This document shows positions 6,118 through 34,627 of a DNA stretch of 64,000 nt, piece after piece (position 1 is the first letter of the stretch; the number at the start of each line of letters is the position of its first letter). The notes beneath the pieces are model-generated. The model searched no databases. It was not told where the DNA came from and worked only from the letters and a program-made list of their open reading frames with translations. The translations under genes and the position numbers were made by a program. This DNA is from Candidatus Parcubacteria bacterium (GTDB lineage Bacteria > Patescibacteriota > Patescibacteriia > UBA1558 > GWA2-36-10), in the NCBI GenBank assembly GCA_018669975.1, contig JABHSK010000005.1, forward strand, positions 121,132 through 185,131, written 5' to 3'.

Positions 6118-6121
6118 GCAT

Positions 6122-6645: not shown

Positions 6646-6655
6646 CCACAGATAT

Positions 6656-7027: not shown

Positions 7028-7030
7028 AAT

Positions 7031-7357: not shown

Positions 7358-7385
7358 TACTTCAATAAATTCAGTATAAAAAAAT

Positions 7386-7937: not shown

Positions 7938-7943
7938 AATATT

Positions 7944-8129: not shown

Positions 8130-8178
8130 ATATTTATTTAAATATAATATAAGATATAGAATATAAAATAACATAAAT

Positions 8179-8568: not shown

Positions 8569-8595
8569 GCAGTTTTAATTTAAAATAATAAATTT

Positions 8596-9150: not shown

Positions 9151-9174
9151 TAAGCATCTTTGTAAATAAAAAAT

Positions 9175-9531: not shown

Positions 9532-9539
9532 TCAATCAC

Positions 9540-10271: not shown

Positions 10272-10282
10272 GATATAAATTT

Positions 10283-10807: not shown

Positions 10808-10819
10808 ATAAATATATAT

Positions 10820-12097: not shown

Positions 12098-12117
12098 ATA
12101 TATTTTTTATAAAAAGT

Positions 12118-12152
12118 ACCCCCAATGACCTAACAGGGGGTTCTTTTATTTT
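12118..12152 (+). terminator. Intrinsic terminator after secY (acccccaatgacctaacagggggt plus a T-rich tract)
   Basis: A hairpin followed by ttcttttatttt, read directly from the sequence. Confidence 0.5.
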
Positions 12153-12200
12153 ATTGGGTATTTTGTTATAATTTTATTAGTGGTTAATTAATCAAAAAAT

Positions 12201-12848
12201 ATGCCAGGAGGTATTAAGAGAGCAGTATTATTAGGCCCACAGGGCTCAGGAAAAAGCACCCAAAGTAGAATGATTGCGGAGGCTTTAGGCGTAGATGTTA
12301 TTTCAGCTAGCCGTATTTTAAAAGATATAGTCCAAAGAGAAACAGATATGGGCAAGAGGATTAAGAAGCTGATGGATGGGGGTTCAATGATTCCAGACAC
12401 CCATATGATCAATTTGATGTTAGAAGAATTAAGGGCGCCAGTCTGCCGAAGTGGTTTTTTGCTAGATGGTTTTCCTAGAAATATAGTGCAAGCTCACGCA
12501 CTCGAAGAGAGTTGTGGGGTAGAAAAAGTTTTTAGTATTGAGATTTCAGATGAAGAAGCTATTAAAAGAATGAAGGGTCGACGCATTTGTAATAATAGAC
12601 ATGTTTTTCATGTAGATTTCAAACCACCCCAAAAAGAAGGCGTGTGTGATATTTGCCAACTTCCTTTACATCAAAGGGAGGATGATAAGCCAGAAGCAGT
12701 GCGTAAGAGATTGGCTAACTATCATCAGGACACAGAAAAGCTGTTACAGTATTATGAAAAGCAAAATAAGCTAGTCGTTTTTGATGGGGAGCAACCCATT
12801 GAAGATGTGTCAAATACTATTTTAGATTATTTAAAGAATAATGCTTAG
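12201..12848 (+). CDS. adk: Adenylate kinase with a zinc-binding LID (Cys4)
   Basis: The P-loop is GPQGSGKST. The LID cysteines are CNNRH…CDIC. Confidence 0.9.
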   Translation: MPGGIKRAVLLGPQGSGKSTQSRMIAEALGVDVISASRILKDIVQRETDMGKRIKKLMDGGSMIPDTHMINLMLEELRAPVCRSGFLLDGFPRNIVQAHALEESCGVEKVFSIEISDEEAIKRMKGRRICNNRHVFHVDFKPPQKEGVCDICQLPLHQREDDKPEAVRKRLANYHQDTEKLLQYYEKQNKLVVFDGEQPIEDVSNTILDYLKNNA

Positions 12849-13587
12849 TCGAAAAACACCAAAAGATATTAAAATTTTAAGAGAGGGCGGTAAGTTGTTA
12901 GGTAGTATATTGAGGCAGTTGGCAGGTGAGGTTAAACCTGGGGTTACTGGTCAGGAGCTTAACAAGTTGGCTGAAGAGCTGATTAAAAAAGCCGGAGGCA
13001 CACCTTCTTTTAAGAATTACCGTGGCTTTCCATGTGGTCTTTGTGTTTCGGTTAATCAGACAGTAGTTCATGGCGTTCCTAATGATCAGCCTTTTAGAGA
13101 GGGAGATCTAGTTGGCCTAGACATTGGTATGAAGTACAAGAATCTACATACCGACACAGCTACCACTGTAGCTATTGGTAAATTAGATAAGAAAGTTCAA
13201 CAATTTTTGGATAGAACTAAGCAGGCATTGGAAATTGGCATACAAGAAGTTGGTCCAGACAAACATATTGGTGATATTGGTAAAGCCATAGAAAAATTTA
13301 TTAAGCCCTTTGGCTATGGCATAGTTAGGGATTTAGCTGGTCATGGAGTAGGTTATGATGTGCATGAGGATCCAATAGTGCCGAATTATAATCCTGGCTC
13401 TAAGATGGATAAAATGTTTCCTGGTATGGTTATTGCCATTGAACCAATGATAATTATTGGCGGTAGTCATAGTGTGGTTGTTGGAAAGAATAAATGGGAT
13501 ATAAAAGCCCAAGATGAAAGTCTAACAGCTCATTTTGAACACACTGTAGCAGTTACTGAAGATGGTTATTTAATAATTACTGAATAA
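12841..13587 (+). CDS. map: Type I methionine aminopeptidase
   Basis: A MAP fold with metal ligands in context (…HGVPNDQPF…DIGMKYKN…HFEHTV…). It has the canonical position after adk. Confidence 0.9.
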   Translation: MLSRKTPKDIKILREGGKLLGSILRQLAGEVKPGVTGQELNKLAEELIKKAGGTPSFKNYRGFPCGLCVSVNQTVVHGVPNDQPFREGDLVGLDIGMKYKNLHTDTATTVAIGKLDKKVQQFLDRTKQALEIGIQEVGPDKHIGDIGKAIEKFIKPFGYGIVRDLAGHGVGYDVHEDPIVPNYNPGSKMDKMFPGMVIAIEPMIIIGGSHSVVVGKNKWDIKAQDESLTAHFEHTVAVTEDGYLIITE

Positions 13588-13588
13588 T

Positions 13589-13984
13589 ATGGATAGGCCA
13601 AAGAGATTATTGGGGGTAGATTATGGAGATAAAAGAGTTGGAATAGCTCTGGCAGATATGGGTAGCATTGCTTTACCTTATAAAATTTTAGACAATAAGG
13701 GTAAACGGCCATTATTGGATGATTTGAACAATATTATTGAACAAGAGCTGGTTGATATCGTAGTGGTGGGGTTACCACATAGTTTGTCAGGCCAGAGTAA
13801 TGAGCGTTTGGAAGTAACTAAAAATTTTGTAGATTTCTTGTCCCAGAGTTTATCACTGCCAGTGCAAACAGTAGATGAACAAATGACCTCTAAAATGTTT
13901 AGTAAAATGGGAATAAACAAAAATATAGATAAGCATTCAGCTGCAGCTATATTAGATACTTTTATATCTCAAAATAATGCCTGA
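13589..13984 (+). CDS. ruvX: YqgF/RuvX-like putative Holliday junction resolvase / pre-16S rRNA nuclease
   Basis: LLGVDYGDKRVGIALAD is the RuvX N-terminal motif. The 131-aa length fits. Confidence 0.75.
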   Translation: MDRPKRLLGVDYGDKRVGIALADMGSIALPYKILDNKGKRPLLDDLNNIIEQELVDIVVVGLPHSLSGQSNERLEVTKNFVDFLSQSLSLPVQTVDEQMTSKMFSKMGINKNIDKHSAAAILDTFISQNNA

Positions 13985-15044
13985 TTATATAAAATTTATT
14001 TTAGTTTTTCTGATAGCTTTTGTCCTGTCTTTTGTGTTTACCAAGTTTATTATTTGGCTGGCTCATAGGCAGGGTATTTTAGATCATCCAGGTGCAGATA
14101 GAAAGATACATACTAAACCAGTGCCTTTATTAGGGGGTATAGCAGTCTATGCTTCTTTTTTTATTACCATCTTTATTTTGTGGCAGAGTCATCAGCTAAC
14201 AGACGAGCGGATTAGCTTGTCTATGCTAGCTTGGTTTTTATTAGCAGGGTTGGTATTGATTATCAACGGTGCTTTGGATGATAAATATTCACTGCCAGCT
14301 CAGGTGACTGTTTGGGGTCCTGTTTTAGCCTCCTTGATTATTATATTCGCTGGATTAAAGATAAGCTATATTACCCATCCAGAGGGTGGAGTTTTGCAAC
14401 TGGATAGCTTATTTTCTTCGTTGTCTGGTATGGCTGATTTTATTCCTATGCTACTCACCTTTGTTTGGTTGATGGGTATTACCTATACTACTAAATTATT
14501 GGATGGCATAGATGGGCTAACTTCTAGCATCGGATTGGTAGCTAGTGTGGTTATTTTTGTGGTCAGTCTTTCGTGGGATATACAAGGTTCTACTACATCG
14601 TTATTAGCGTTAGTTTTAGCCGGAGCAATTTTTGGTTTTTTATTGTTGAATTGGCATCCAGCTAAAGTTTTTCTAGGAGAGGGTGGTAGTACCTTTATTG
14701 GTTTTTCCCTAGGTGTTCTGTCGATTATATCGGGTAGTAAAATAGCCACAGCTTTATTAGTTATGGGTTTGCCAGTATTGGATATTATTTGGGTCATAAT
14801 AAGGCGTTTAAGGCAAAAAAAGGCCTTTTGGAGGGCTGATAAGCAACATTTGCACTTTAGACTGCTTTCAGCTGGATTATCACAAAAACAGGTCGTTATT
14901 TTCCTTAGTACAATTAGTTTATGTTTTGGTGTTATTTCTATACTATTTACTACCAAGGCTAAAATTGGTGCCCTGATTATCCTATTGGTTTTGATGTTGC
15001 TGTTGAGTAGTTGGTTGAATTATCGTTTAAAGCAAAAAAAATGA
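13977..15044 (+). CDS. MraY/WecA-family (polyprenyl-phosphate N-acetylhexosamine-1-phosphate transferase) integral membrane protein
   Basis: About 10 TM segments and the KLLDGIDGL motif, which is characteristic of the family. Confidence 0.7.
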   Translation: MPDYIKFILVFLIAFVLSFVFTKFIIWLAHRQGILDHPGADRKIHTKPVPLLGGIAVYASFFITIFILWQSHQLTDERISLSMLAWFLLAGLVLIINGALDDKYSLPAQVTVWGPVLASLIIIFAGLKISYITHPEGGVLQLDSLFSSLSGMADFIPMLLTFVWLMGITYTTKLLDGIDGLTSSIGLVASVVIFVVSLSWDIQGSTTSLLALVLAGAIFGFLLLNWHPAKVFLGEGGSTFIGFSLGVLSIISGSKIATALLVMGLPVLDIIWVIIRRLRQKKAFWRADKQHLHFRLLSAGLSQKQVVIFLSTISLCFGVISILFTTKAKIGALIILLVLMLLLSSWLNYRLKQKK

Positions 15045-15541
15045 GTATACCTAAAATAACTATCATTATTGTATCTGTAATTTTAGTACTTGCAGCTGTC
15101 TATTTTTGGCATACTCCAATAAAAATAGAAGAAGCCATTTGGCAACCAAATGTTACCATTAATGAACATAATTTTATTGTTGAGGTGTTATACTCAGATG
15201 AAGAAAAAAGGCAGGGCTTGGCAAATGAAGATTTTTTGTTAGAAGATAATGGTATATTGTTTTTATTCGACATAAAGAAGGTGCGCACTTTTTGGATGAA
15301 GGATATGAAATTTAACATTGATTTACTTTGGATAGATGATCAAGAGATAGTAGGTATTGAAAAATTGATGTTAGCACCCGAGTCAGATATTTTGTATAAG
15401 GATTTAATAAAATATGATTCACCGAAATTAATAAATAAGGTTTTAGAATTTCCAGCGGGCACAGTAGATAAGTATTCCATACAAGTTGGGGACACAATTA
15501 ATTTTGATATATATGACAGAAACAAAATGGAAGGAAATTAA
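15041..15541 (+). CDS. DUF192 (COG1430)-like protein with an N-terminal membrane anchor
   Basis: …RTFWMKDMKFNIDLLWID… resembles the DUF192 core. The probable start is the ATG overlapping the upstream stop (ATGA); the ORF-track start at 15011 is likely too early. Confidence 0.5.
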   Translation: MSIPKITIIIVSVILVLAAVYFWHTPIKIEEAIWQPNVTINEHNFIVEVLYSDEEKRQGLANEDFLLEDNGILFLFDIKKVRTFWMKDMKFNIDLLWIDDQEIVGIEKLMLAPESDILYKDLIKYDSPKLINKVLEFPAGTVDKYSIQVGDTINFDIYDRNKMEGN

Positions 15542-15830
15542 ACAACAGCTTCGAGATAATTTTGAGATAGAAGATGAGTATGAAGAGGATTTTAATCCAG
15601 GCGTATCAGAAGCGTTAGAATTTACTGGACCACAAGGCAAGATGAAGGTTAGGTTTGTTGTTAAGCCGAGGATGTTGGATAAAAAAACAGAATATTCCAA
15701 CAGAGCTGGTTCTAATGTTAAAGTAGAGTATGTCTATTCAGAGGACGAGTTTGTATCATACTTGGAGGCTTTTACTTGGTCTGATGCTAGCAATGATTGG
15801 CAGAAAATAGAGTCAGAGGCTTTATTTTAG
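15513..15830 (+). CDS. Hypothetical acidic cytoplasmic protein
   Basis: Open reading frame only; the start is ambiguous (15486 or 15513). Confidence 0.35.
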   Translation: MTETKWKEIKQQLRDNFEIEDEYEEDFNPGVSEALEFTGPQGKMKVRFVVKPRMLDKKTEYSNRAGSNVKVEYVYSEDEFVSYLEAFTWSDASNDWQKIESEALF

Positions 15831-15858
15831 GGTTGTTTACGGGTATAATATAACGGAT

Positions 15859-16293
15859 ATGAAATTAAACAGACAAAATAAGATTATTTTATCTATGCTT
15901 GGTTTTTTGGTGTTAGGAACCATAAGTGTTTCTTTAACGCATCAAAATAATAGGTCCATAGTAGAATATCAATCGGAGACTGAAATTATTGAGTTAATTG
16001 GTTATTCAGAATATATACAGCAGATTAGACCGTGGTTACAAACAGCTTTGAGTGACCAATCTGCAGAAACGATTAGTCGAGTTAGATCAAATCTGCTTAA
16101 CGTTAAAAGTTCTGAAAAAGAATTGGGGCCAGTTCATATGAATTTATTTTTAGCTTTTGAGTCTTGGGAGAATTTTTTGCACACTCAGCAAGAAAGTTAT
16201 AGGGCACAGGCGTCTGAGCAATTAGCTTTGGCGGCAAATTTATCCCCAGAGTTATCGGAGGATATTCAGCAATTAAAAAAGATTTTAAATTAA
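15859..16293 (+). CDS. Hypothetical protein with an N-terminal signal anchor
   Basis: An ORF with a hydrophobic N-terminus (ILSMLGFLVLGTISV). Confidence 0.4.
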   Translation: MKLNRQNKIILSMLGFLVLGTISVSLTHQNNRSIVEYQSETEIIELIGYSEYIQQIRPWLQTALSDQSAETISRVRSNLLNVKSSEKELGPVHMNLFLAFESWENFLHTQQESYRAQASEQLALAANLSPELSEDIQQLKKILN

Positions 16294-17016
16294 ATGTTTA
16301 GTTATTTAATACCATTTGTGAATCCATTGGTGATTTTGACAGGACTATTGTTGTTTTTTTATAATCAAGAAGGTATTTTTTGGTTGTTGGGCGTGTCTTT
16401 GTTGACTATCTTATTGAGTGGTAGGATAGTTTCCAAAAAACTTTTTTGGCGCCATAAATTATTGTGGGTAAATTTAATAACCGCCTATGTTTCACAGTTG
16501 TTATTTTTATTAGTGCTTACTTCTGGTAATATTAGATATTTACTAGCCTTTGCATTGAGTATTATTTGGGGAGTTATTTGGTGGTTGCTAGGGATATATT
16601 TTAAACGCATAGAAAACATCAACAGTAAAGAATATTTATCTTACAATATATTTTTTTATACGCTGTCTTTTTGGTTTTTATCATCCAGCCTTTATGCCTT
16701 GATTGTATTTTTAAACTGGCCAGTGGTGCTTACTTTACTGGTTTTATTGATTGTTGTTTTTTTATGGACTAAAGAGATATTTGATCAAACAGATGATGTT
16801 GGTCGACTGTATGTATTTTTTGCCATGTTTATCTTGGCACAATTAGTAGTGGTATTGTATTTTTTGCCTGCTAGTTTCTATATCGCAGGTGCTATTGCAA
16901 GTTTATGGTTTTTCTTTATAATAGATAGTACTATCAACAAGAGCAGAGATTTTAGGCTCTATTTAAGCTTATTCCTGGCTAGTTTTGCAGTATTAATAGC
17001 TATAGCCATTATTTAG
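16294..17016 (+). CDS. Hypothetical polytopic membrane protein (~6 TM)
   Basis: An ORF with multiple hydrophobic segments. Confidence 0.45.
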   Translation: MFSYLIPFVNPLVILTGLLLFFYNQEGIFWLLGVSLLTILLSGRIVSKKLFWRHKLLWVNLITAYVSQLLFLLVLTSGNIRYLLAFALSIIWGVIWWLLGIYFKRIENINSKEYLSYNIFFYTLSFWFLSSSLYALIVFLNWPVVLTLLVLLIVVFLWTKEIFDQTDDVGRLYVFFAMFILAQLVVVLYFLPASFYIAGAIASLWFFFIIDSTINKSRDFRLYLSLFLASFAVLIAIAII

Positions 17017-17023
17017 TAATTTT

Positions 17024-18115
17024 ATGGAAAGAAAAAAACATTTTGAGCGGCCTACTATGAAAAGGCCACCGTCAATGGTCAATTTGACCATATTGACCAT
17101 ATTAATAGGCGTACTAGCTGGTTTTTCCGGTTATCTACTAGCTCGGCAGGTTTTTCCTGTTTCAGGTATTGATTACTTTAACTTGGTTGACAGTAGAAAA
17201 GAAATCAAGATAGATTTGGAGCAACCGCTGACTAATGTGGCTGACAAATATCAAAAGAGTGTAGCGGGAGTTTATAAGTCAGTTAAATCTTTGCCGGCAG
17301 TGGGTCAACCACTTTTCTCTGAAGAAGATTTCCTGGGTTCAGCCGTAGTAGTAACTTCAGATGGTTGGTTGATGACTACTAATCAAGTTTTAAAGAATGA
17401 TTCAGTGGTAGTTATCTTGGGAGATAAGGTCTATGAAATATTAGAAATTAGTCAGGATGAATTTTCTGGAGCTGTATTTTTTAAGATTGATTCTAATTCT
17501 TTGCAGCCAGTTGATTTTCAGATGACGGACGATATTAAGGTAGGCGAGAGATTGTTTACCAACGTTGATTTGGCTAGGAGCTTAGATCATGTTTTTTATA
17601 CAAATTTTTTAATTAACACTCATTACGTCACTGATCAATATTTATCCAGCGATCAAGTTGATTATTATTTACAAATAGATAATAAGTTAACAGATGTTAA
17701 TTTATTAGCAGCACCATACTTTAATATTAACGGTGATTTAGTAGGCGTTGTTTATGACTATGATGGTCAGGTAGTATTATTACCAGCAGAGTATCTTAAA
17801 CAAGCTGTTAAGCACCTCTTAGCTGGCACTGAAAGATTTTCTTTAGGTGTTAGATATGTAGATATGGAAAACAACAGTGGTTTTATCCGTAAGGGTAATT
17901 TAATTTATCACCCTACTTTGAAAGCCATCGCTATTAATTCTTCAGCTTTGGATGCCGGGCTTAAAACGGGTGATCAGGTAGTCGCTGTTAATAATGATGT
18001 TATATCGGCTGATCGAACATTAACCTCTATTTTGCAAAATTATCGCTCAGGCGATAAAATTATTATGAAGATATTACGTAATGATATTGAACGGGATTTA
18101 GAAATTAAATTATAA
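17024..18115 (+). CDS. HtrA/DegP-like trypsin-fold protein with a C-terminal PDZ domain, apparently inactive (catalytic His and Ser replaced)
   Basis: GSAVVVTSDGWLMTTNQVL aligns with the DegP catalytic His region …TNNHVV (H->Q). The catalytic Ser motif GNSGG is replaced by NINGDLVGV. The PDZ-like C-terminus is GDQVVAVNNDVISAD. Confidence 0.5.
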   Translation: MERKKHFERPTMKRPPSMVNLTILTILIGVLAGFSGYLLARQVFPVSGIDYFNLVDSRKEIKIDLEQPLTNVADKYQKSVAGVYKSVKSLPAVGQPLFSEEDFLGSAVVVTSDGWLMTTNQVLKNDSVVVILGDKVYEILEISQDEFSGAVFFKIDSNSLQPVDFQMTDDIKVGERLFTNVDLARSLDHVFYTNFLINTHYVTDQYLSSDQVDYYLQIDNKLTDVNLLAAPYFNINGDLVGVVYDYDGQVVLLPAEYLKQAVKHLLAGTERFSLGVRYVDMENNSGFIRKGNLIYHPTLKAIAINSSALDAGLKTGDQVVAVNNDVISADRTLTSILQNYRSGDKIIMKILRNDIERDLEIKL

Positions 18116-18121
18116 AGATAT

Positions 18122-18150
18122 AAAAAATCAGCTCTAGGAGCTGATTTTTT
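18122..18150. terminator. Bidirectional intrinsic terminator between the convergent htrA-like and HTH genes
   Basis: Stem aatcagct/agctgatt flanked by aaaaaa and tttttt. The HTH stop codon lies in the loop. Confidence 0.5.
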
Positions 18151-18478
18151 GTTCGTTTTGATCCAGGTTGCTCTCCCTGTCTTCGTTATTCACCTTGTCT
18201 TTTTTATTTTGCAGTGCCAATTTTGGATTGGGGCTGTATTTTTTATTACTTATTTTCCATTTGTCTACGTATTGTCCCATACCTTGATCTTTTAATAAGT
18301 TGGATCTTCTAGTAGATTTCTGGGACCATTCCACTAAAGAAATAAAACTAATCTTATAGCGTCCATTAACCACTATATAGCGTAGTTCTTCACTTTTGAT
18401 GGCTTGGCGGATAGTTTTGGTAGAAACACCAAATAACCTGGCTGCCTCGGAAACTGATATGCGTATTATATTTTCCAT
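18134..18478 (-). CDS. Excisionase/MerR-family helix-turn-helix DNA-binding protein
   Basis: SVSEAARLFGVSTKTIRQAIKSEELRYIVVNGRYKI is a classic HTH_17 / excisionase-type DNA-binding domain. Confidence 0.7.
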   Translation of the reverse strand: MENIIRISVSEAARLFGVSTKTIRQAIKSEELRYIVVNGRYKISFISLVEWSQKSTRRSNLLKDQGMGQYVDKWKISNKKYSPNPKLALQNKKDKVNNEDRESNLDQNEQKISS

Positions 18479-18485: not shown

Positions 18486-18514
18486 TTGACATTTAATGGG
18501 GCTCATGTTAAATT
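18486..18514 (+). promoter_or_regulatory. Sigma70-like promoter (TTGACA-17nt-TAAATT) driving the GC-rich cassette
   Basis: Canonical -35 box, 17-nt spacer and -10-like hexamer. GAGAGGAG Shine-Dalgarno follows, then the ATG at 18571. Confidence 0.4.
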
Positions 18515-18570
18515 GACTCGTTATTTCGCACGTTTAAACCCTATAAACATTCTAAAGAGAGGAGACTTAA

Positions 18571-19230
18571 ATGTCAACCGAAAGTCCCAAAGTTCGTACA
18601 GCAGCAGACGTCGATTTACGGGTTGAGGAAATACTAGAAAAGGTAGAAACCGAACTTCAATATTGGGAGATTATCGAAAGTATTGGTGGTTTTGTCTGGC
18701 GCATGAATCATGACATGGGTCATGGTCGAATCGAGGATAAGGATGGCCAGGTTTCTGGTGACGTAGCTTTTATGCAACGAGTTATCGAAAAGCTGGTCAC
18801 TGGACTGTTTGAGAAGTATGGTGTTATCCATCCCAAGAATTGTCCAAAAGTTGAATTTGGTGAGACGCCGCCAGCAGCTCCCGAGGGCACGACCTACTAT
18901 TGGGATTGGTATGATCTTATGAAGCAGGAATCCTATAGTCAGGAATATAATGGCATGATTTGTGCCGCTTGTCCCTATAGTAAGGGTCTAGATTATTTCA
19001 AGGCTCTTGGTGGGAATATTCCCTGTGGCCTTTTTCCTGGCTCTTGCTTTCGTCTGCGCACTCCCTTTGCTTGTTGTATGATAGGTGAAGATCGCAGGTT
19101 CGAGTATACCATGGAGGAGTTTCTGGATAAGTTGCAAGCCGAACATGAACCGGCTGTATTAGCAGCTTTTACTGCTCATCACCTGAAATTGCAAGATCGC
19201 TTCGCTCAAAATCAACAGCAAAAGGGATAA
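18571..19230 (+). CDS. Hypothetical Cys-rich protein (7 Cys including CAAC, CC) in a compositionally foreign cassette
   Basis: A 219-codon ORF in markedly GC-richer DNA with a strong Shine-Dalgarno site (GAGAGGAG). No family recognised. Confidence 0.65.
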   Translation: MSTESPKVRTAADVDLRVEEILEKVETELQYWEIIESIGGFVWRMNHDMGHGRIEDKDGQVSGDVAFMQRVIEKLVTGLFEKYGVIHPKNCPKVEFGETPPAAPEGTTYYWDWYDLMKQESYSQEYNGMICAACPYSKGLDYFKALGGNIPCGLFPGSCFRLRTPFACCMIGEDRRFEYTMEEFLDKLQAEHEPAVLAAFTAHHLKLQDRFAQNQQQKG

Positions 19231-19269
19231 CCTCTTAAAACAATCCAATTCTCTAGAGAGGAGAAGATC

Positions 19270-19905
19270 ATGCATCTCGGTCTAAGTTTGAGTCCACAGC
19301 TAGCCTTGCGGCAGACTCAGCGTCTGAACCTGACACAGACTCAGCGTCTCGACCTACACCAACACTTGTTTGGCTTGCGTCTAGAGCTGGTCGGTCGTTT
19401 GCACGATGAACACTACACGCCCCAGGCCAAGTGTTCAGGCTGTAGCTACAATTTGAAACTTGTTGAAATTCTCCATGGATTTCGTGATGATCCGGATGAT
19501 ATTACTACTGAGTGTCCCAAGTGTCAGCGGCGTTTCACGCCTAGTCTGATTGCTCACGGACGTTTTGGTACCAAAGTTATCTTGAGCTTCTATTGTTCAG
19601 AGCAGACCCTGGCCCGGCTCGACGCCAACATCGACCCTGCTACCTACAAAAAGACACACCCGGCCATTTATCGGTCAGTACTGTTTCATTTTGGTAGCCT
19701 GCGTCAGGCTTTTGCTAGTCAGGGCAGGGAGTACTCTTTTAAGGAGTCCTTCGAATGGGCTGAAAAGGTTGAACCATTCCTGGGTCGTTTGCCTGATACC
19801 GAGATTGCTCGGTGTGCTAACGTTCCTGTGGGTAAGATTCGCCGTTTGCGGCGTAAGTTTGATATCCCTGTCTTTACCAAGCGCAGGACTTGGGATGAGT
19901 TATAA
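19270..19905 (+). CDS. Hypothetical protein with a CxxC…CxxC zinc ribbon and a C-terminal HTH-like segment
   Basis: CSGCSYN…(25)…CPKCQRRF forms the ribbon. The C-terminal IARCANVPVGKIRRLRRKF resembles a transposase/terminase-type HTH. A GAGAGGAG Shine-Dalgarno precedes it. Confidence 0.65.
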   Translation: MHLGLSLSPQLALRQTQRLNLTQTQRLDLHQHLFGLRLELVGRLHDEHYTPQAKCSGCSYNLKLVEILHGFRDDPDDITTECPKCQRRFTPSLIAHGRFGTKVILSFYCSEQTLARLDANIDPATYKKTHPAIYRSVLFHFGSLRQAFASQGREYSFKESFEWAEKVEPFLGRLPDTEIARCANVPVGKIRRLRRKFDIPVFTKRRTWDEL

Positions 19906-19920
19906 TATAATGTTTATTAG

Positions 19921-19945
19921 GAGGCTCTCCGGAGCCTCTTTTTTT
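19921..19945 (+). terminator. Intrinsic terminator (gaggctc-tccg-gagcctc then ttttttt)
   Basis: A perfect 7-bp stem plus a T7 run, 16 nt after the stop of the second cassette gene. Confidence 0.55.
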
Positions 19946-19946
19946 A

Positions 19947-19975
19947 TTGACTGCACAGGTAAAGTATTATATATT
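19947..19975 (+). promoter_or_regulatory. Sigma70-like promoter (TTGACT-17nt-TATATT) for the third cassette gene
   Basis: Read directly. An AAGGAGGA Shine-Dalgarno lies 7 nt upstream of the GTG start. Confidence 0.4.
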
Positions 19976-20016
19976 GGAAGTCGCACTTTTAAACCTAAAT
20001 CAAGGAGGATACTTCT

Positions 20017-20364
20017 GTGACACTAACACATCAACCTAACACCGAGTTGGAGTACTGGCAGGCCTTAGAGGGCTATGAAAAAACAGCCCTGAAGCTCAGA
20101 GATGGCCTAAGGAGAGGCCTAATACCCCGGGCTGAGATATCAGACACCAAACAGACCATTGAGCAGGCAGATACTGCCCTAACAGCTTTGTTCTTAGAGC
20201 TTGAGCGTAGATTTAATATTTTTTGTTATAAAAATCACCCGCAAGGCACTGCTCAACCCAAGGGTACGCAAAAACTCATCGATTGGTGGAATAAAATGGA
20301 CCATTTGGCCCAACAACAGATCATCGTGGGGGACGTAGCCACTAACCAGAAGAAGACTCCTTAA
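20017..20364 (+). CDS. Hypothetical 115-aa protein (GTG start)
   Basis: ORF with a strong Shine-Dalgarno site, its own promoter and its own terminator. No family recognised. Confidence 0.55.
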   Translation: MTLTHQPNTELEYWQALEGYEKTALKLRDGLRRGLIPRAEISDTKQTIEQADTALTALFLELERRFNIFCYKNHPQGTAQPKGTQKLIDWWNKMDHLAQQQIIVGDVATNQKKTP

Positions 20365-20373: not shown

Positions 20374-20398
20374 GAGGCTCCAATTGGGGCCTCTTTTT
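20374..20398 (+). terminator. Intrinsic terminator (gaggctcc-aatt-ggggcctc then ttttt)
   Basis: 8-bp stem with one G.U pair, followed by a T-run. Confidence 0.45.
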
Positions 20399-20406
20399 CT
20401 TAAATC

Positions 20407-20507
20407 TTATCCACAATTATAGATTTAATTACAGACCACTCTAAACATTTATATTATTCTGTGGATAAGTTATATTTTCTATTTTGGAAAATATTATCTG
20501 TGGATAA
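20407..20507. promoter_or_regulatory. Cluster of three perfect DnaA boxes (TTATCCACA at 20407-20415; reverse complement TGTGGATAA at 20460-20468 and 20499-20507) in an AT-rich spacer
   Basis: Exact 9-mer matches to the DnaA box consensus. The two reverse copies sit in a 13-nt repeat, tctgtggataagt. Confidence 0.5.
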
Positions 20508-20752
20508 GTATAAAAATCACCCTAAAATTGTAGTTCAAATTGGTCAAAAATCTAGGACAACTTTTTTAAAGTGTGATATAATTCGGTTCATCGATATATT
20601 GACCTAATCTTGGTGCTATAGTGTTTACAACATCGATTAAAAGTGTTATAATTCTGTCGACTTATTAATAAGTTACATAAACAAACCCCTAATTTGAAAG
20701 ATTTATTGGCTAATATTAGCCAAAAGAATAGACCTGAAAAAAGTGTAATATT

Positions 20753-21328
20753 TTGGGTTGTTTTTCGTCATTATTTATGAAAGGTTTTAAAGGTAATTTA
20801 CAAGAAAAAATCGTATTTTTGAGGCTCAAGTCTGGTGACTCAGATGCTTTTGCTTTTTTCTACGATAAATATGTTACTCGTATTTATCGTTTTGTTTTGA
20901 TAAAGGTATCAAACAAGCAGGTGGCCGAAGATCTAACTCAAGATATATTTCTCAAGACTTGGCAGCACTTAGTAGATAAAAGAAATGTAAAGAGCTTCCA
21001 GGCATTTATTTTCCGAGTAGCAAGAAATAGAGTTATTGATCATTATAGGCAGAGCAATAAACAAGAATTGCCATTAGAGTATGTGCCAGAGATTATCGAC
21101 ATGTCTGATAATATAGAGAAGGATCTAGATAAGGCCATAGATAAGGATAAGTTACTTCAAAAAATACAACAGTTAAAACCTACATATCAAGAAGTTTTAT
21201 TACTTAGATACTTAGAAGACCTATCTATAGATGATATAGCTAGAGTTATTCAAAAGGATAAAAATAACGTTCGAGTAATAATTCATAGAGCTTTAAATAA
21301 GCTCAAGCAAATAGCAGACGAAAAATAA
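20753..21328 (+). CDS. ECF-type (sigma-70 family) RNA polymerase sigma factor
   Basis: Region 2 (…GDSDAFAFFYDKY…EDLTQDIFLKTW…ARNRVIDHYR) and a region 4 HTH (LSIDDIARVIQKDKNNVRVIIHRALNKL) are present. The true start may be the internal ATG at 20777. Confidence 0.8.
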   Translation: MGCFSSLFMKGFKGNLQEKIVFLRLKSGDSDAFAFFYDKYVTRIYRFVLIKVSNKQVAEDLTQDIFLKTWQHLVDKRNVKSFQAFIFRVARNRVIDHYRQSNKQELPLEYVPEIIDMSDNIEKDLDKAIDKDKLLQKIQQLKPTYQEVLLLRYLEDLSIDDIARVIQKDKNNVRVIIHRALNKLKQIADEK

Positions 21329-21338
21329 TTTTAAATAC

Positions 21339-22703
21339 ATGAGTTTAAAGAAACAATTTTCCAAACTTAGAAAGTCAGAGGATCTACAACCTGACGAAGC
21401 TTGGAAAAATCAAACTAAATATGAATTGCTATCAGAAATTTCTTCTCAGAACAGACTGATGCAAGCACAAAAGCTGACAACTTCTGAAAAAGTAGATATG
21501 TTGGCCATGAATTTTTTTAATAAGGTGGCGCCATCATTTAGTAAGATGGTAGCCGGCTTTTTGATTGTTATCATGGGCTCCGGTGTAAACATGGCTGCAC
21601 AGGCATCTGTACCAGGTCAAGCATTGTGGCCAGTTAAAAGATCTATTGAAAGAGCTGAGTTGACTCTAACTTTTTCTCCAGTTAAAGAAACTGAAATTCA
21701 TATTAAACATGTTAATAAAAGATTAGATGAAATTGGTAAAATCTTAGAAAGTACAGAAAATGAAATTGAACCAACTGAGACTACTAAGAAAGAAAGAGCT
21801 ATTAAGCAGGCAGTTAGTCATTTAGAACAAGATATTAAATCAGCTGATAATTCTCTAAAAGTAGTTAAAGAAGAAAAAACGCCACTAGAAGTTGTTGAGT
21901 TAGCCAAGAAGGTGACTGATGCTACTAAAGAAGCGGTTGAAGATTTAGAAGAAAAAGCTGTAGATTTAGAGGATATGGCTATTGAAGAAGTTTTGGATGA
22001 TGCCAAGGTCACCCAACAAGAGGTTAATGATGCAGCTGTTAGCTTGGCATTAGAGGTGCATGAAGAAGTGGTAGCAGCCATTGAAGCTAATAAGGTAGTA
22101 GCAGAAAATATAGATATTACCACCACAACAGTACCAGAGATTTTAGAAATAGAAGATGTTGTAGCTGAAGCTGAGGCTAATGCTGTTAAGGCTGTGGTTG
22201 CAGAAATGATTGCTGTTGAAATAATGGAAACAGGAGTAGAAATAGAAGATATCAATGTAAAGGCTGGTGATGCAGCAGACGCAGAAGCAGTGGAAATAAA
22301 TTTAGAAGGTAATGAAGAAACAATAGAAGATATAGAGGATGTTAAAAAGACATCCGAGGAATCTGGAGTAGTCCTAGATGAGGCCAAAGTTTTATTAGAA
22401 GAGGGCTCACTAAAGGATGCTTTAGAAAAAGTTTCCGAAAGTAAAGAGATAAATGAAAAGAATGAGGTTACTTTGGAACAAATAGAAGAACAAAATGAGC
22501 AGGTGGTTAATGAAGGTGTTGAAACTCCAGTTGATGAAGATTTGGATAACACCACATCATCACCAGAAATCATCGAAAATACAGAAGATATAGAAGAGCC
22601 TGGTTCTGACTTAGAGATGACTACTGATGAGGAGGTTATTAAAGAAGAGGATGTAGAGATGGTAGATCCAAAAGATTTGATCTACGATCATCAATTATAT
22701 TAA
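21339..22703 (+). CDS. Membrane-anchored, highly acidic coiled-coil protein; possible cognate anti-sigma factor (assigned by position only)
   Basis: One TM segment (MVAGFLIVIMGSGVNMAAQA) after a ~65-aa N-terminal region, then an E/V/A-rich extracytoplasmic domain. It lies immediately downstream of the ECF sigma gene. Confidence 0.5.
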   Translation: MSLKKQFSKLRKSEDLQPDEAWKNQTKYELLSEISSQNRLMQAQKLTTSEKVDMLAMNFFNKVAPSFSKMVAGFLIVIMGSGVNMAAQASVPGQALWPVKRSIERAELTLTFSPVKETEIHIKHVNKRLDEIGKILESTENEIEPTETTKKERAIKQAVSHLEQDIKSADNSLKVVKEEKTPLEVVELAKKVTDATKEAVEDLEEKAVDLEDMAIEEVLDDAKVTQQEVNDAAVSLALEVHEEVVAAIEANKVVAENIDITTTTVPEILEIEDVVAEAEANAVKAVVAEMIAVEIMETGVEIEDINVKAGDAADAEAVEINLEGNEETIEDIEDVKKTSEESGVVLDEAKVLLEEGSLKDALEKVSESKEINEKNEVTLEQIEEQNEQVVNEGVETPVDEDLDNTTSSPEIIENTEDIEEPGSDLEMTTDEEVIKEEDVEMVDPKDLIYDHQLY

Positions 22704-23116
22704 GGTTATTTAAAAATTAATTATATAAACCTTTAGACAAGCACGGTATCCAACTTAGTCGAGTTGGGCAATAGGTTGAGGGTATTTAGCTTTTATTCCC
22801 ATGCATAGAAGAATAAAGGCTATTATCCCTAACTTATTCGCTAATCGCGCGCGACTTAGGGGTTTGTTTGTAGCTTTATAGCTACGCTAAAGTCCTAATG
22901 TGTTTTATCTAGAAAAGACAGATTAGGCAAATAATTCGTGTTCCTAGAAAAAGTATTTTTTCTATCAGAATTGTAGGCCTATTAATTTAGGTGGTCAGCA
23001 AGGTCGATCGCTGGAGAGCGAGGTACTAGGTTGATAGTTCGATCCCGTTTTTGCGGGGTGTTTACAAGGAAGAGGATAAAATAATTTCTAGCGAACTTAT
23101 TAAAGAAAAAAAATAA

Positions 23117-26100
23117 ATGAGTTTAGTAAAAAGACTTTTAGTGTTTTCTTTGGTAATTACCACTGTCCTATCATTTAGTCCAATAAATGTAGAGGCAGCC
23201 GGTAGTTACGGTGCAGGCTCTTTGCTTGCTAAAGAAGGTGTTGAAGGCGCAGCCGTTTATTACATCGGTTCTGATGACATGAAATATGTTTTCCCAGATA
23301 GTAAGACTTATTTCACATGGTATGAAGACTTCAGTGATGTTGTTAGAGTACCTGTTACAGAATTAGACATGTATGGTAATGGTGGCGCTGTGACTTATCG
23401 TCCTGGTACCTACCTCGTTACTCACGAGGACACAGCAAATGTGTATGGTATAGGTGCAGGCGGTATGTATCACTTAATTCCTTCTGAAGCTGTTGCAACA
23501 GACTTGTACGGAGCAGACTGGGGATCCATGGTAATGGATGTAATTCCTGGTTATTTTTCAACAAGCTATACCGAAGGTTCTGATCTATCAGACATGTACC
23601 CAACAGGTACTTTATTGTCTGATGGTACAGATACTTATTACGTTGATGGCACATCAAAGAGAATCTTTGTTGATGCTGACGCTTTCGAAGCCAATGGCTT
23701 GATGGCTGACAATGTATTAGAAGTTAGCGATCTTTCTGATTATTCCGACGGTAGTTCTATCGACGGTGAAGAGTCAGACATTGCAGGATTCATGCCGGGT
23801 GAAGGTACTCCTGGTGACCCAGTTATTTCTGGTAGCCTTTCATTATCACTAGCTAGTGATACTCCAAACCCAGGTATTTATCCATCTACAGCTTCTGGTT
23901 TAGAAATGTTAAAATTCAAAGCCAAAGCTGGTTCTGATGGTGCTGTCTTAGACGGTATCACAATTGGTCATGGCGGTGTTGGCGCCACTACAGAATTCAT
24001 CAAGATTTATCTGTATGAAGGCGAATCAAGATTGACCAGTGGTAAGACAATCAATTCAAGTACAAATGCTACAGAATTCAACAACTTGAATATTGATTTT
24101 TCTGCCAATGAGACTAAGTATTTGACTGTTGTAGCTGACGCTGGAGTAAGCAAATCTGGTACTCATCTTTTCTCAATCACAGCAGCTGAGCTAGAAGCAG
24201 GCACTGCTACTTTAGGTTCTATAGTAGGTAATGCTATTTCTCTAGGTACAGCTAACGCTGGTGAAGTAGTTATCACTGAAGGTAGTGATCCTTCCAATGG
24301 TAAAGTTGGTGAACAGGACGCAGAATTAACTTCTTTCACTTTGACTGTTGATAGTATTGAAGACTCTTCATTTGAGAGAATTTCACTATATCATGCTGGT
24401 GCTGTTTCACGTGGCGACTTAACTGACCTTGAACTTTACAAGAACAGTAAGTCTGCTGAGAACTTGGTTGCTAGTACTAGTGGCTTAGACAGTGAAGATT
24501 TAGCTGTTTTTGTATTAGATACTCCAGTAGACCTAGAAAAAGGTCAAGCAGTTAAGTTTTATGTATATGGTGACATTTCAGGCGATGCCAAATCTGGCTC
24601 AGCTGAAACTGTTAACTTTTACCTTGATGAAACTTCAGATCTTAAAGTAATGGGTAATAATTATAACGCCCCTCTAGGTGTTGATAATTATGATCAGAGT
24701 TTTAACTCATCAACTGGTTCAGGTACTTATAATGGTGGAGCAGCTGCTCGCTATACAACTATGTACTTGGAAGGTAGTGATGTAACTTTAACTACTGATG
24801 GCCCATCTGCAACAAACATTGATGCTGGTGGTAATTCAGCTGATGATATCAACCTTTTGAATTTCGCTATTGCTTTGACTCAAGAAGCAGACTTAAAGAG
24901 TATTCAGGTTGAGTTACATGCTGTTACTACTGATATGGATGCTAGTGATACTACTGTAACAAGTAATTATATCACTGACGTTAAGATCGTTAATACTGAT
25001 ACAGGTACAACTGTATGGGGTCCAACTGATATCTCAAGTTTCTCTGATATTGGCAATAGTGCTGGTGTTAGTAAGACTTGGACAGATACAGAGACTTTAG
25101 CAGCGGGTACTCATAACTATAAAGTTACAGCTGACTTTAAGAATTCTAGCTTGGACGCTGGTAGTAAAATATACGCTGTGTTAGGTGATAAAGCAGACGG
25201 TAATACACTTATCTCAACTGCTGTTAAATCTACTGGCAACAATACTTATTTAACTAGCATTGTTCCATCAAGCTATACTCAAGGTGCAAATATGACCTTG
25301 AAGGGACCAGCTTTGAAAGCAACTAGAGCAACCACTCCAAACTCTGACGACATCGTTAAGGGTGCTGATGGTGTAACTGTTGCTAACTTGATCTTCTCTG
25401 CAGAAGATAGTGGTGCTGACCTCAAAATAACATCTGTAAAATTCTCAGGTTATGTTGATGGTTGGTCACGTTCTGTCATTTTGACAAAAGATCAAACTGG
25501 TTCTACTTTAGCTATTACTGATTTAGTATCATATGTTCGTGCCTATGCTGAAGAAGCAGATGGTTCTGAAACATTGTTAGGTACTAAAGCATTTAATAGT
25601 TCAGGTGAAGTCACTTTCAGTAGTATAGCTTGGAACATCCCAGCTGGTGAAACCAGAAACTTGCGTGTCGCAGTTGACACCAATGCTGGTCATACAGCTA
25701 CTGTAGGTTTGACTACAATGGACGCTTTCGCTGTTGATATTACTGATTTCTCAGCTGACGTATCAGCCGAGACTTCAAGTGGTACAGCTTTGACAGCTGC
25801 TCAGATGGGTACTGCTACTTCTGACCTTCCAAATACTGCTACTACAGCAGCTACTGGTCCTAAGTTTGCTATGTATTCAGCTGGTACTATCACTGTACAA
25901 GACGGTGCTGACAAACCAGCTGTAACCTTAGTAACAACTGGTTCTTCAGATGTTTATTATCACCAATTAGAGGTGTATACTGCTTATGAAGACTTAGCAA
26001 TCAGCAAGATGAAGTTCTTAGCTAGTGAGAAAGCTGGTAACTTTGCTTCAGTCAAGTTGACTGGTAAGAATACAGCCGGTGATACAGTATCATATACCAC

Positions 26101-27037
26101 TGATGTTGATGGCAGCGGTTACGCTACCTTTACTGGTATGGATTTGAAAGCTGATGATGACGGTGAAAATATCGACATGTATGTAACATTAAACACTGTT
26201 ACTAACGGCGCTTTAGTCGGTAGTTCAGCTACTTGGGACTTACAAACTACTGGTTTTGAAGCCAACGGTGTAGGCGGAAGCAACACTAACGTTGCTAGCT
26301 TTACTAATAGTGATGCTGCTTCAGCTGCTTTGTATGTTGTTAAGTCAAAACCTGTCTTTGCTAATGCTGGTTCAAACGGTTCATTGGCTGACGGTGTAAA
26401 CACCTTGTACAAATTTACTGTCACCCCAGCTGGTGAAGGTAAGATTGCTATCAAGAAGTTGAAATTCAACGTTGACGCTAGTGATGCCAGTGGTTCAACT
26501 CTGAATCTACATAGTTTCAGATTGTACAAAGGCACATCTTGTGATACAGCTATCGATACTGCTTTCTTTACTGACGGCGTATACGGTACTACAACTTTGA
26601 GTTTGTTGAATACTACTACCGCCGATTACGGTGATGCTGCAGCTAGTGTTGCAGTGTACATGTTCTTCGAAGGTACAAGTGATTCTTCATACACTGATGC
26701 TTCTGATTACTATGGTGAATTAGTAGTTCCAACTAGTGGTGAAACTTATTGTTTGAAGGCCACTGTTGCTAACTCAGCTACAAACGACTCTGTCGTTGCA
26801 AGTATTGCTGAGGAAGGACAAGACACTTCAGGTCCTACCTATGGTGCTTTGGCTTATGATCTTGCTGATTATGATTCATTGATTACTATTGGTACTGATT
26901 CTGACATTATCTGGTCTGACTACTCTTCAACTACAAGTCATCAAGACAGTCTAGGTTCTGGTACATCTTCTGACTTCTTCGGAGGTCGTTATCTACCAGG
27001 CTTACAGTCTGATGCAACATCTTTGAGTAAGAGCTAA
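23117..27037 (+). CDS. Giant (1306 aa) secreted Ser/Thr/Gly/Asp/Ala-rich surface protein with an N-terminal signal peptide
   Basis: The signal peptide is MSLVKRLLVFSLVITTVLSFSPINVEA. The mature part is acidic, low-complexity and repetitive. No domain recognised. Confidence 0.6.
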   Translation: MSLVKRLLVFSLVITTVLSFSPINVEAAGSYGAGSLLAKEGVEGAAVYYIGSDDMKYVFPDSKTYFTWYEDFSDVVRVPVTELDMYGNGGAVTYRPGTYLVTHEDTANVYGIGAGGMYHLIPSEAVATDLYGADWGSMVMDVIPGYFSTSYTEGSDLSDMYPTGTLLSDGTDTYYVDGTSKRIFVDADAFEANGLMADNVLEVSDLSDYSDGSSIDGEESDIAGFMPGEGTPGDPVISGSLSLSLASDTPNPGIYPSTASGLEMLKFKAKAGSDGAVLDGITIGHGGVGATTEFIKIYLYEGESRLTSGKTINSSTNATEFNNLNIDFSANETKYLTVVADAGVSKSGTHLFSITAAELEAGTATLGSIVGNAISLGTANAGEVVITEGSDPSNGKVGEQDAELTSFTLTVDSIEDSSFERISLYHAGAVSRGDLTDLELYKNSKSAENLVASTSGLDSEDLAVFVLDTPVDLEKGQAVKFYVYGDISGDAKSGSAETVNFYLDETSDLKVMGNNYNAPLGVDNYDQSFNSSTGSGTYNGGAAARYTTMYLEGSDVTLTTDGPSATNIDAGGNSADDINLLNFAIALTQEADLKSIQVELHAVTTDMDASDTTVTSNYITDVKIVNTDTGTTVWGPTDISSFSDIGNSAGVSKTWTDTETLAAGTHNYKVTADFKNSSLDAGSKIYAVLGDKADGNTLISTAVKSTGNNTYLTSIVPSSYTQGANMTLKGPALKATRATTPNSDDIVKGADGVTVANLIFSAEDSGADLKITSVKFSGYVDGWSRSVILTKDQTGSTLAITDLVSYVRAYAEEADGSETLLGTKAFNSSGEVTFSSIAWNIPAGETRNLRVAVDTNAGHTATVGLTTMDAFAVDITDFSADVSAETSSGTALTAAQMGTATSDLPNTATTAATGPKFAMYSAGTITVQDGADKPAVTLVTTGSSDVYYHQLEVYTAYEDLAISKMKFLASEKAGNFASVKLTGKNTAGDTVSYTTDVDGSGYATFTGMDLKADDDGENIDMYVTLNTVTNGALVGSSATWDLQTTGFEANGVGGSNTNVASFTNSDAASAALYVVKSKPVFANAGSNGSLADGVNTLYKFTVTPAGEGKIAIKKLKFNVDASDASGSTLNLHSFRLYKGTSCDTAIDTAFFTDGVYGTTTLSLLNTTTADYGDAAASVAVYMFFEGTSDSSYTDASDYYGELVVPTSGETYCLKATVANSATNDSVVASIAEEGQDTSGPTYGALAYDLADYDSLITIGTDSDIIWSDYSSTTSHQDSLGSGTSSDFFGGRYLPGLQSDATSLSKS

Positions 27038-27064
27038 ATAGCTTTTTATCTAAGATATATAAGG

Positions 27065-27090
27065 AAAAGCCCCCTAACGGGGGCTTTTCT
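27065..27090. terminator. Strong bidirectional intrinsic terminator (aaaagccccc-taac-gggggctttt)
   Basis: Perfect G/C stem flanked by A4 and T4 runs. Confidence 0.65.
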
Positions 27091-27150
27091 GATTGGAAAA
27101 ATCGTGTTAAGATAAGCTCGAGAAAATAGTAATAATTAAGCAATAAAACA

Positions 27151-27762
27151 ATGAAAAAAATATTATCATTCCTTGTCTTAGTAGTCGTTATATTAGGTTT
27201 GGGTTGGTATTTTTCTAGTGATGATAGCCAAAAAGAAGTGGAACAATGCCTGGCTACCAAATCAGATGAAGATTGTTACAGGCAGTTTTTACAGGCTGGT
27301 ATTGATTTTTATGCCACTGAAAATCCTGATTATCAATCTGCGCTAGAGCAATTCAAACTATCTGCCCAATCTTATGCCAATGATAAGACCAAGGGTTATA
27401 CAGTTTGGAGAAATATGGCCAATGCTCATATGGAGTTGAAACAATATGATGAAGCAAAGGAAATATTTAATGATCTCTTGCAAATCAATCATGGTGATAT
27501 GAGTCTAGTTTATCTAGACTACATCCGTCTTTATGACATGCAAAAGGATTATGAAACAGCCCTACAGGTAGCCCAAGAAGGTTTTGATAAATTTTCTGAA
27601 GTTGTCTTTCTCTATAAGCAGGCCAATATTTTAGAAGACCTGGAGCGTTATGCTGAGGAGGTAGAAATATATGAGCAGATTCTAGAAATGACTGATTTGG
27701 AAAGAAGATCTTCAGTTGAATATAAAATAGAAAAATTAAAAGCAGTCCATAATTTAGATTAA
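27151..27762 (+). CDS. TPR-repeat protein with an N-terminal membrane anchor
   Basis: An N-terminal TM segment and TPR-like helical repeats (…YANDKTKGYTVWRNMANAHMELKQYDEAKEIF…). Confidence 0.55.
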   Translation: MKKILSFLVLVVVILGLGWYFSSDDSQKEVEQCLATKSDEDCYRQFLQAGIDFYATENPDYQSALEQFKLSAQSYANDKTKGYTVWRNMANAHMELKQYDEAKEIFNDLLQINHGDMSLVYLDYIRLYDMQKDYETALQVAQEGFDKFSEVVFLYKQANILEDLERYAEEVEIYEQILEMTDLERRSSVEYKIEKLKAVHNLD

Positions 27763-27766
27763 TCTT

Positions 27767-31183: not shown

Positions 31184-31286
31184 ATTGGGGGTTTTTTACC
31201 TAAAATTAGCCAAATTGTTAATTGATTTATTTTGTAAATACTGGTATAATTTTATAGAATTTATAAATATTAAGCAAGTAGTAGAT

Positions 31287-32444: not shown

Positions 32445-32459
32445 TTTTATTAGGCAGCT

Positions 32460-33491: not shown

Positions 33492-33494
33492 ATC

Positions 33495-34625: not shown

Positions 34626-34627
34626 TA

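Follow-up and report, generated by a model that had tools for sequence, protein, structure and literature searches.

Locus organization and DnaA boxes

This study concerns three DnaA boxes located upstream of a gene encoding an extracytoplasmic function (ECF) sigma factor in a 64,000-nt stretch of DNA from Candidatus Parcubacteria bacterium (GenBank:JABHSK010000005.1, positions 121,132 to 185,131 of the forward strand; assembly GCA_018669975.1), which is referred to here as the window and in which all coordinates are given. The 9-mer TTATCCACA was found at 20407-20415 on the + strand (box 1) and at 20460-20468 (box 2) and 20499-20507 (box 3) on the - strand, and these were the sole exact copies in the 64 kb. 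The DnaA consensus is TTATNCACA, in which position 5 is N (PMC4447404). Starts of the boxes were 53 and 39 bp apart, giving a span of 101 bp with the orientation + - -, and a search of the spacer allowing one mismatch revealed no boxes beyond the three exact ones. The 10-mer CTTATCCACA was common to all three. As described in the initial annotation, boxes 2 and 3 lie within a repeated 13-mer, TCTGTGGATAAGT, which was located to 20458-20470 and 20497-20509; the annotation had also judged three perfect copies so close together to be beyond chance. That judgement stood, since dinucleotide-preserving shuffles gave a mean of 0.63 exact boxes per 64-kb window as compared with the 3 observed, and clusters of three boxes spanning no more than 101 bp would be expected about 3e-7 times in the window (Poisson estimate).

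The sigma factor gene (20777-21328, + strand, 183 aa) encodes Sigma70_r2 and r4_2 domains, and its best NCBIfam match was the BldN-family ECF sigma factor, under the cutoff. On the other side of the spacer are three GC-rich genes (18571-20364, + strand), encoding proteins of 219, 211 and 115 aa (p219, p211 and p115), which lie between the boxes and a - strand gene (18134-18478) for a helix-turn-helix (HTH) DNA-binding protein of the HTH_17/excisionase family (PF12728, 4.6e-8; TIGR01764, 29 bits). An HtrA-like protease gene (17024-18115) is located to the left of the HTH_17 gene. The intrinsic terminator of the p115 gene (20374-20393, + strand) is situated 13 nt before box 1. The spacer had been reported to be 388 nt long, which holds only with a sigma factor start at TTG 20753; the gene callers and all orthologs use ATG 20777, and the spacer is therefore 412 nt.

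Conservation of the boxes in related loci

Relatives of the locus were found via the sigma factor (61-72 % amino acid identity) in metagenome-assembled genomes of Komeilibacteria, Parcubacteria and Patescibacteria and in metagenome contigs. The comparative set consisted of 17 distinct orthologous loci, comprising 6,145 bp of spacers and 135,285 bp of flanks. The consensus TTATNCACA occurred 18 times in the spacers (14 exact) versus 6 times in the flanks (2 exact), exact boxes being about 150-fold denser in the sigma-upstream spacers than in the flanks, and TTATCCACA and TTATACACA were the sole variants present in the spacers. An exact box was found in 11 of the 17 loci; for 500 control 9-mers of the same composition the mean was 0.07 loci and the maximum 4.

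In the relatives, TTATCCACA is located on the minus strand 240-410 bp upstream of the sigma gene, and homologs of box 2 were identified in L014, L016, L017, L020, L021, L022, L024, L096, L098, L100 and L102. Box 2 is thus the ortholog of a clade-wide box, and it is also exact in L006, a relative sharing the gene order of the window. Box 3 is a local duplicate of box 2, 39 bp off, with which it has the 13-mer in common; it is exact in L006 at the same 39-bp spacing despite differing flanking bases. Box 1 is specific to the window/L006 lineage, and its counterpart in L006 is TTATACACA, the lone box change between the two (C to A), confined to the degenerate position 5 of TTATNCACA.

Between the sigma genes of the window and L006, the 4-fold sites showed a neutral-like identity of 49 % and the third codon positions one of 59 %; the neighbouring genes were 69-84 % identical at the nucleotide level, and the spacer was 80.6 % identical. 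Within 20394-20553, 26 of the 27 box positions were identical as compared with 69 % of the remaining columns (binomial P = 6e-4). The bases directly adjoining the 9-mers differed, and the 53- and 39-bp spacings were unchanged. The boxes are under selection. Additional boxes were also noticed in L022 (17 bp apart), L024 (51 bp apart) and L098 (50 bp apart, flanking the promoter); they arose independently in these three and in the window/L006 lineage, often 39-53 bp apart.

Predicted leftward promoter module in relatives and its remnant in the window

All promoters described here are consensus predictions. In most relatives, where the gene order is HtrA-like gene (+), HTH_17 gene (-), spacer and sigma gene (+), the minus strand carries a module upstream of the HTH_17 ATG that reads TTATCCACA, 2-7 nt, TTGnnn, 17 nt and TATACT, the clade-wide box 2 abutting or overlapping the -35 of the predicted leftward HTH_17 promoter. 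The box itself may instead serve as the -35, as TCCACA-16/17-TAGAAT, in the relatives; for L020, the consensus scanner returned TTGTAA-17-TATACT or, alternatively, TCCACA-16-TAGAAT with the box as -35. A palindrome of about 20 bp, AGTATAGAATATTCTATACT, spans the spacer and -10 of the module, and the HTH_17 start codon follows about 25-60 nt further. The palindrome GTATAGAATATTCTATAC was found exactly once per relative locus; in most relatives 13-14 nt separate it from the box, the gap being 11-17 nt in L021 and L016. Conserved positions in the module were limited to the 9-mer and the promoter/palindrome.

Since local regulators commonly bind divergent intergenic regions, it was considered that the 9-mer might be the site of another protein, i.e. 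the HTH_17 protein or some other factor, with its identity to a DnaA box being coincidental. Co-occurrence of the box with the HTH_17 gene would fit such a site, L015 and L095 lacking the gene and the box, together with the palindrome; this joint absence looks like one deletion of the whole gene-plus-module segment and so does not amount to independent evidence. The 20-bp palindrome, probably the auto-operator of the HTH_17 protein, is the operator that a dimeric HTH protein would most obviously use, and its sequence is unrelated to that of the box. In the window, a search for GTATAGAATATTCTATAC with up to 3 mismatches found no copy of the palindrome, but the boxes stayed exact. Moreover, conservation is limited to the 9 bp of the DnaA consensus, with variation solely at the degenerate position 5, and this exact match of the pattern to the consensus argues for DnaA as the binding protein. 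Recognition by a protein other than DnaA is improbable in our judgement.

A degenerate remnant of the leftward promoter and palindromic operator was recognized at 20416-20459 (- strand), homologous by inspection to the module of the relatives and best aligned with that of L024. The TTGnnn hexamer is gone and TATACT has become TGTAAT. Two weaker leftward candidate promoters, both shared with L006, are predicted in this region: TCCACA (20465-20460)-16-TAGAGT (20443-20438) and TTTAGA (20445-20440)-18-TATAAT (20421-20416). Relative to these candidates, box 2 is located on or upstream of the -35, box 1 just downstream of the -10, and box 3 39 bp upstream of box 2. Transcription from either would proceed antisense across the terminator and the p115 gene.

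Decay of the adjoining ancestral promoter and palindrome raises the question of whether the boxes are functionless, as undecayed leftovers of the displaced HTH_17 promoter. The near-complete identity of the box positions to those of L006, amid surroundings at 69 % and with 4-fold sites at about 49 %, speaks against this, as do the conserved spacing and the number of boxes, which rose instead of falling. We therefore regard a mere relic as very unlikely.

The three-gene insertion

The region 18571-20364 has a G+C content of 0.44 versus about 0.35 in the flanks. The three genes are absent from L014-L023, L096, L098 and L100. L024 represents an intermediate, with only a p115 homolog (E = 2e-29) and its terminator present between the HTH_17 gene and an intact module. 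The p115 terminator marks the insertion's right-hand edge; it has been conserved in both L006 and L024, immediately in front of the ancestral module. As the box is present in relatives free of the cassette, the boxes belong to a pre-existing divergent regulatory region, into which the three GC-rich genes were inserted. In the window, the HTH_17 gene has its own strong predicted promoter, TTGACA-17-TAGAAT (18577-18549).

No family match was obtained for the 219-, 211- and 115-aa proteins in Pfam, PHROGs and NCBIfam, and scans of viral contigs with p219 and p211 found no relatives. Homologs of p219 were few; one (69 % identity; L006-L008) is in the relative that shares the gene order of the window, and the others (L009-L013) occur in different, unrelated surroundings, among them a phage-like one, and have no boxes. 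The phage-like contig, L012, carries a p219 homolog at 40 % identity together with HNH, RtcB and many small open reading frames. It was also noticed that the N-terminal portion of p219 is similar to p115 (pairwise E = 2e-5), and that p211 has two CxxC pairs and, by eye, an apparent C-terminal HTH.

Neither an integrase, a transposase nor flanking repeats were found in the cassette, and a search for attachment sites as direct or inverted repeats around it gave nothing convincing. The 13-mer ATAAAAATCACCC-type repeat was tried as an attachment site and rejected, as it is not conserved in L006. Scans of the whole window for tRNAs and against Rfam (gathering thresholds) gave no match; hence, the spacer is not a known RNA gene and the insertion is not at a tRNA-linked integration site. 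At the left border, an 11-nt inverted repeat (TTGACATTTAA at 18486-18496 and TTAAATGTCAA at 18567-18577) corresponds to mirror-image TTGACA -35 boxes of divergent predicted promoters for the HTH_17 gene and the first cassette gene. This symmetric divergent promoter region borders the insertion and replaces the ancestral upstream region of the HTH_17 gene.

The boxes and replication origins

Three perfect boxes in AT-rich noncoding DNA, adjoining DNA of foreign composition, could mark a replication origin, either a chromosomal oriC uncoupled from dnaA or one carried in by the neighbouring cassette, and both possibilities had been raised in the initial annotation. The analysis of GC skew proposed there as a check was run on the window and showed no inflection at the boxes. 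The skew was positive on either side of them, +0.225 for 1-18000, +0.166 for 20777-40000 and +0.201 for 40001-56000, and the cumulative skew climbed monotonically, with a single local dip coinciding with the GC-rich insertion. Gene orientation did not switch at the site, the + strand carrying 30 of the 31 genes on its left and 31 of the 36 on its right, so that the ribosomal-protein/SecY operon in the left part of the window would be transcribed head-on into an origin placed here.

The likeness of the spacer to a DNA-unwinding element had been overstated, as its G+C content, 0.284, falls within the range of the other intergenic regions of the window (0.218-0.361). In-phase DnaA-trio-like repeats were sought at the spacer and none were found, nor are there additional weak boxes. 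Among the window genes scanned there was no dnaA, dnaN, rep, integrase or partition gene, and no DnaA signature was detected in the six-frame translation; the earlier remark that dnaA and dnaN are not nearby thus holds across the whole 64 kb. The DnaA domain-IV signature (R/K)DH(S/T)T(V/I) also had no match in the 175 sequences examined.

The orthologous site in the relatives has mostly one box and in some cases none, in place of the conserved cluster expected of an origin. Import of an origin with the cassette is refuted by the homologous box in the spacers of cassette-free relatives, usually a single one, and by the homologs of the cassette proteins that occur in other contexts without boxes. 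On these observations the three-box site is almost certainly not an origin; an origin of either kind, a reading already largely refuted, is highly improbable. The case also calls for caution in annotation, as three perfect DnaA boxes in AT-rich DNA are insufficient for an origin call.

Proposed function of the boxes

With oriC set aside, we consider it moderately probable that the boxes constitute mainly a non-origin cis-regulatory element at which DnaA would bind and act as a transcription factor. Some titration of DnaA would inevitably occur as a by-product if the boxes are bound. In the ancestral arrangement, as seen in the relatives, the HTH_17 gene (-) and the ECF sigma gene (+) are transcribed divergently, with one high-affinity box located 2-7 nt upstream of the -35 of the HTH_17 promoter or supplying the -35. 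DnaA bound there would touch or occlude RNA polymerase, causing activation or occlusion at the -35, and expression of the HTH_17 regulator could thereby be coupled to the level or nucleotide state of DnaA. In the lineage of the window, the three-gene cassette was inserted between the HTH_17 gene and the module, and the HTH gene now has a different predicted promoter, next to the cassette. The palindrome and the TTGnnn -35 decayed with the box retained, and the box was duplicated (boxes 2 and 3) and joined by the inverted box 1, at spacings that are conserved in a relative.

At present, DnaA probably occupies all three sites. Its target may be the residual leftward promoter, antisense into the cassette, and/or two predicted sigma-70-type promoters of the sigma operon, P1 and P2, 46-120 bp away. 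P1 (20554-20582, + strand; AGGACA-17-TGnTATAAT, with an extended -10) is separated by 46 nt from box 3, which lies upstream; L006 has conserved it, and a comparable element is present in L016. P2 (20624-20652, + strand; TTTACA-17-TGnTATAAT, 11/12 matches to the consensus) is clade-wide; by inspection, a TTTACA-N17-TATAAT-like element is present in almost all relatives, L021 having TTGACA-N17-TACAAT instead.

Several points weigh against this interpretation. The HTH_17 gene is now 2 kb off, behind three genes of the opposite strand, which makes the present target uncertain. L018 has the HTH gene and the palindrome without the box, and in L019 and L023 the box is only shifted or degenerate. For the DnaA of this clade, the box specificity is assumed because domain IV is generally conserved in DnaA proteins, and the promoters concerned are, without exception, predicted. 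In addition, the relatives differ by more than 100 bp in the distance between box and P2, which argues against a direct ancestral role at the sigma promoter and indicates that the box was ancestrally coupled to the leftward promoter, not to P2. Thus, of the earlier suggestion of a DnaA-regulated promoter with the sigma gene downstream, the promoter part stood, with the box locked ancestrally to the leftward HTH_17 promoter, and the link to the sigma promoter could not be demonstrated.

Comparison with known DnaA-binding elements

In Bacillus subtilis, DnaA binds TTATNCACA outside oriC, activating sda and repressing ywlC, yydA and others, and six non-oriC DnaA-box clusters (DBCs) have been described (PMC4447404, PMC3245932). 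The present boxes resemble those at sda, ywlC, yydA, vpr and trmE in being intergenic TTATNCACA sites off oriC and beside promoters (PMC3245932, PMC4447404). At the B. subtilis sites DnaA activates or represses and the sites buffer DnaA, as we propose here (PMC3245932, PMC4447404), and, in both cases, the target genes vary from one species to another. They differ in that 1-3 boxes are present here, not larger arrays, that the host belongs to Parcubacteria within the candidate phyla radiation (CPR), that an excisionase-family HTH protein and an ECF sigma factor are involved, and that the present element is known from sequence alone.

A second parallel is provided by promoters of the Escherichia coli dnaA/nrdAB type and by the oriCII-gidA promoter of Pseudomonas aeruginosa, in which boxes lie immediately upstream of or overlap the promoter hexamers, as in the module described above, and transcription is thereby set by how far the initiator occupies them (PMC3245932, PMC13438810). 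In P. aeruginosa, gidAB-parAB is regulated through DnaA boxes located ahead of a promoter (PMC13438810). The genes served by these promoters are replication-related or origin-proximal, whereas here they are a small HTH regulator and an ECF sigma operon at a site with no origin features.

Alternatively, the primary role of the boxes might be in replication control, as a site titrating DnaA or modulating its nucleotide state, similar to datA, DBCs or the DnaA-reactivating sequences (DARS) of E. coli, and exapted from the promoter box. In a genome of about 0.84 Mb (844,504-bp contig), few DnaA sinks would be stronger than three perfect boxes within 101 bp; moreover, the boxes outlived the ancestral promoter and palindrome, their spacing is conserved between lineages, and the DBCs of B. 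subtilis both regulate and titrate (PMC3245932). A DARS core consists of three boxes, of which box I is oriented oppositely to the other two, II and III (PMC5742627). The + - - orientation of the window is shared with the DARS1/DARS2 core and equals that of DARS1 in strain MG1655 (PMC5742627), which was identified by its three boxes in the bioD-uvrB spacer, one published deletion-primer arm being matched. The DARS1 starts, however, are at 14- and 12-bp intervals (35-bp span), as needed for head-to-head contact of protomers, for which the 53- and 39-bp spacings of the window are too wide. DARS boxes also include imperfect sites, whereas those of the window are all perfect and derive from an ancestral state with a single promoter-linked box.

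Similarly, datA is a chromosomal cluster of high-affinity boxes outside oriC, as is the site described here (PMC3245932, PMC5742627), but its five boxes extend over about 1 kb and it depends on an IHF site; the DBC arrays are also larger than the three boxes of the window (PMC3245932, PMC4447404). Most relatives have a single box, with which little titration would be possible. A primary role in replication control is, on balance, unlikely. Still less probable, in our view, is its most specific form, in which a box orphaned by the cassette was exapted and amplified into a DARS-oriented three-box element that mainly modulates the DnaA pool or nucleotide state and thereby replication timing; if true, a control locus of the datA/DARS type would exist beyond Proteobacteria and Firmicutes, and its evolutionary origin could be traced. 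The element fits best among DnaA-regulated promoters or small non-oriC DnaA-box clusters, i.e. as one of a known kind.

The CPR/Patescibacteria are mostly uncultured and possess very few transcription factors, and to our knowledge almost nothing is known about their gene regulation and cell-cycle control. In the literature searched, no paper dealt with DnaA boxes in Patescibacteria, and the combination of CPR, oriC and DnaA returned only generic statements. A clade-wide box at the promoter of a small regulator beside an ECF sigma operon suggests that the replication initiator is used as a transcription factor in these bacteria. As the sigma operon is followed by a cluster of about 35 kb for glycan biosynthesis, replication status may possibly be linked to envelope or surface-glycan functions. 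The locus also records, stage by stage, the survival and multiplication of a cis-element whose original target was lost to an insertion. With its clade-wide conservation, its link to HTH and ECF sigma genes in CPR, and the traceable retention and amplification of the box, it would be a good entry point for experiments.

Other elements of the spacer and neighbouring genes

The sigma-proximal half of the spacer, with P2, the palindrome TTGGCTAATATTAGCCAA and an ECF-type element, forms a separate conserved unit. P1 and P2 are a tandem duplication of the extended -10 promoter, with a 31-nt direct repeat at 20557-20587 and 20627-20657, 70 bp apart, and a perfect palindrome, ACTTATTAATAAGT (20660-20673), is located at the predicted start site of P2. 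In the 5' leader of the sigma gene, the perfect palindrome or hairpin TTGGCTAATATTAGCCAA (20706-20723) is conserved in most relatives, with changes in both arms that preserve symmetry, e.g. CCTAATATTAGG in L016 and GGCTAAGGTTAGCC in L017; its role may be that of a protein operator or of an RNA hairpin, and Rfam had no match for it.

The ECF-type promoter-like element TGTAAT-N16-CGTC (20744-20769, + strand) ends 7 nt before the sigma ATG and is kept in the relatives as GTGTAATATTT...CGTCTATAT(AT)ATG. The motif GTGTAATATTT-N12-14-CGTC is at the same position in L014-L024 and L095-L102, with CGTCTATATATATG in the relatives. Its location suggests a putative autoregulated promoter giving an essentially leaderless sigma mRNA. 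The possibility that the motif marks a regulon within the window was rejected, as it is unique there to the upstream region of the sigma gene itself.

The sigma gene is co-operonic with a gene for a 454-aa DUF5667 protein (21339-22703, + strand; PF18915, 1.8e-8), which is syntenic in L006 and is a candidate anti-sigma factor or partner protein. This pair is bracketed by a perfect 14-nt inverted repeat, AAACAAACCCCTAA and TTAGGGGTTTGTTT, at 20679-20692 and 22856-22869, the downstream copy of which abuts CGCGCGCG; in several relatives, AAACCCAATCGCGCGC is located just upstream of the promoter proximal to the sigma gene. Next comes a gene for a 1306-aa protein, followed by the glycan-biosynthesis cluster. 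At the other end, the left part of the window contains the ribosomal-protein/SecY/Adk/Map operon, followed by genes for RuvX, a glycosyltransferase and small proteins of no known function.

At the end of the glycan cluster, a 380-aa protein encoded at 62214-63356 matches the methyl-accepting chemotaxis signalling domain PF00015 (40.7 bits, cutoff 34.6), which seems unusual for so small a genome. A raised G+C content (about 0.40-0.43 across the two patches) was noticed at 23117-27037, just downstream of the sigma operon, where the 1306-aa protein with no family match is encoded, and at 38457-40415, which encodes a B12-binding radical S-adenosylmethionine protein on the minus strand; both patches may be acquired DNA.

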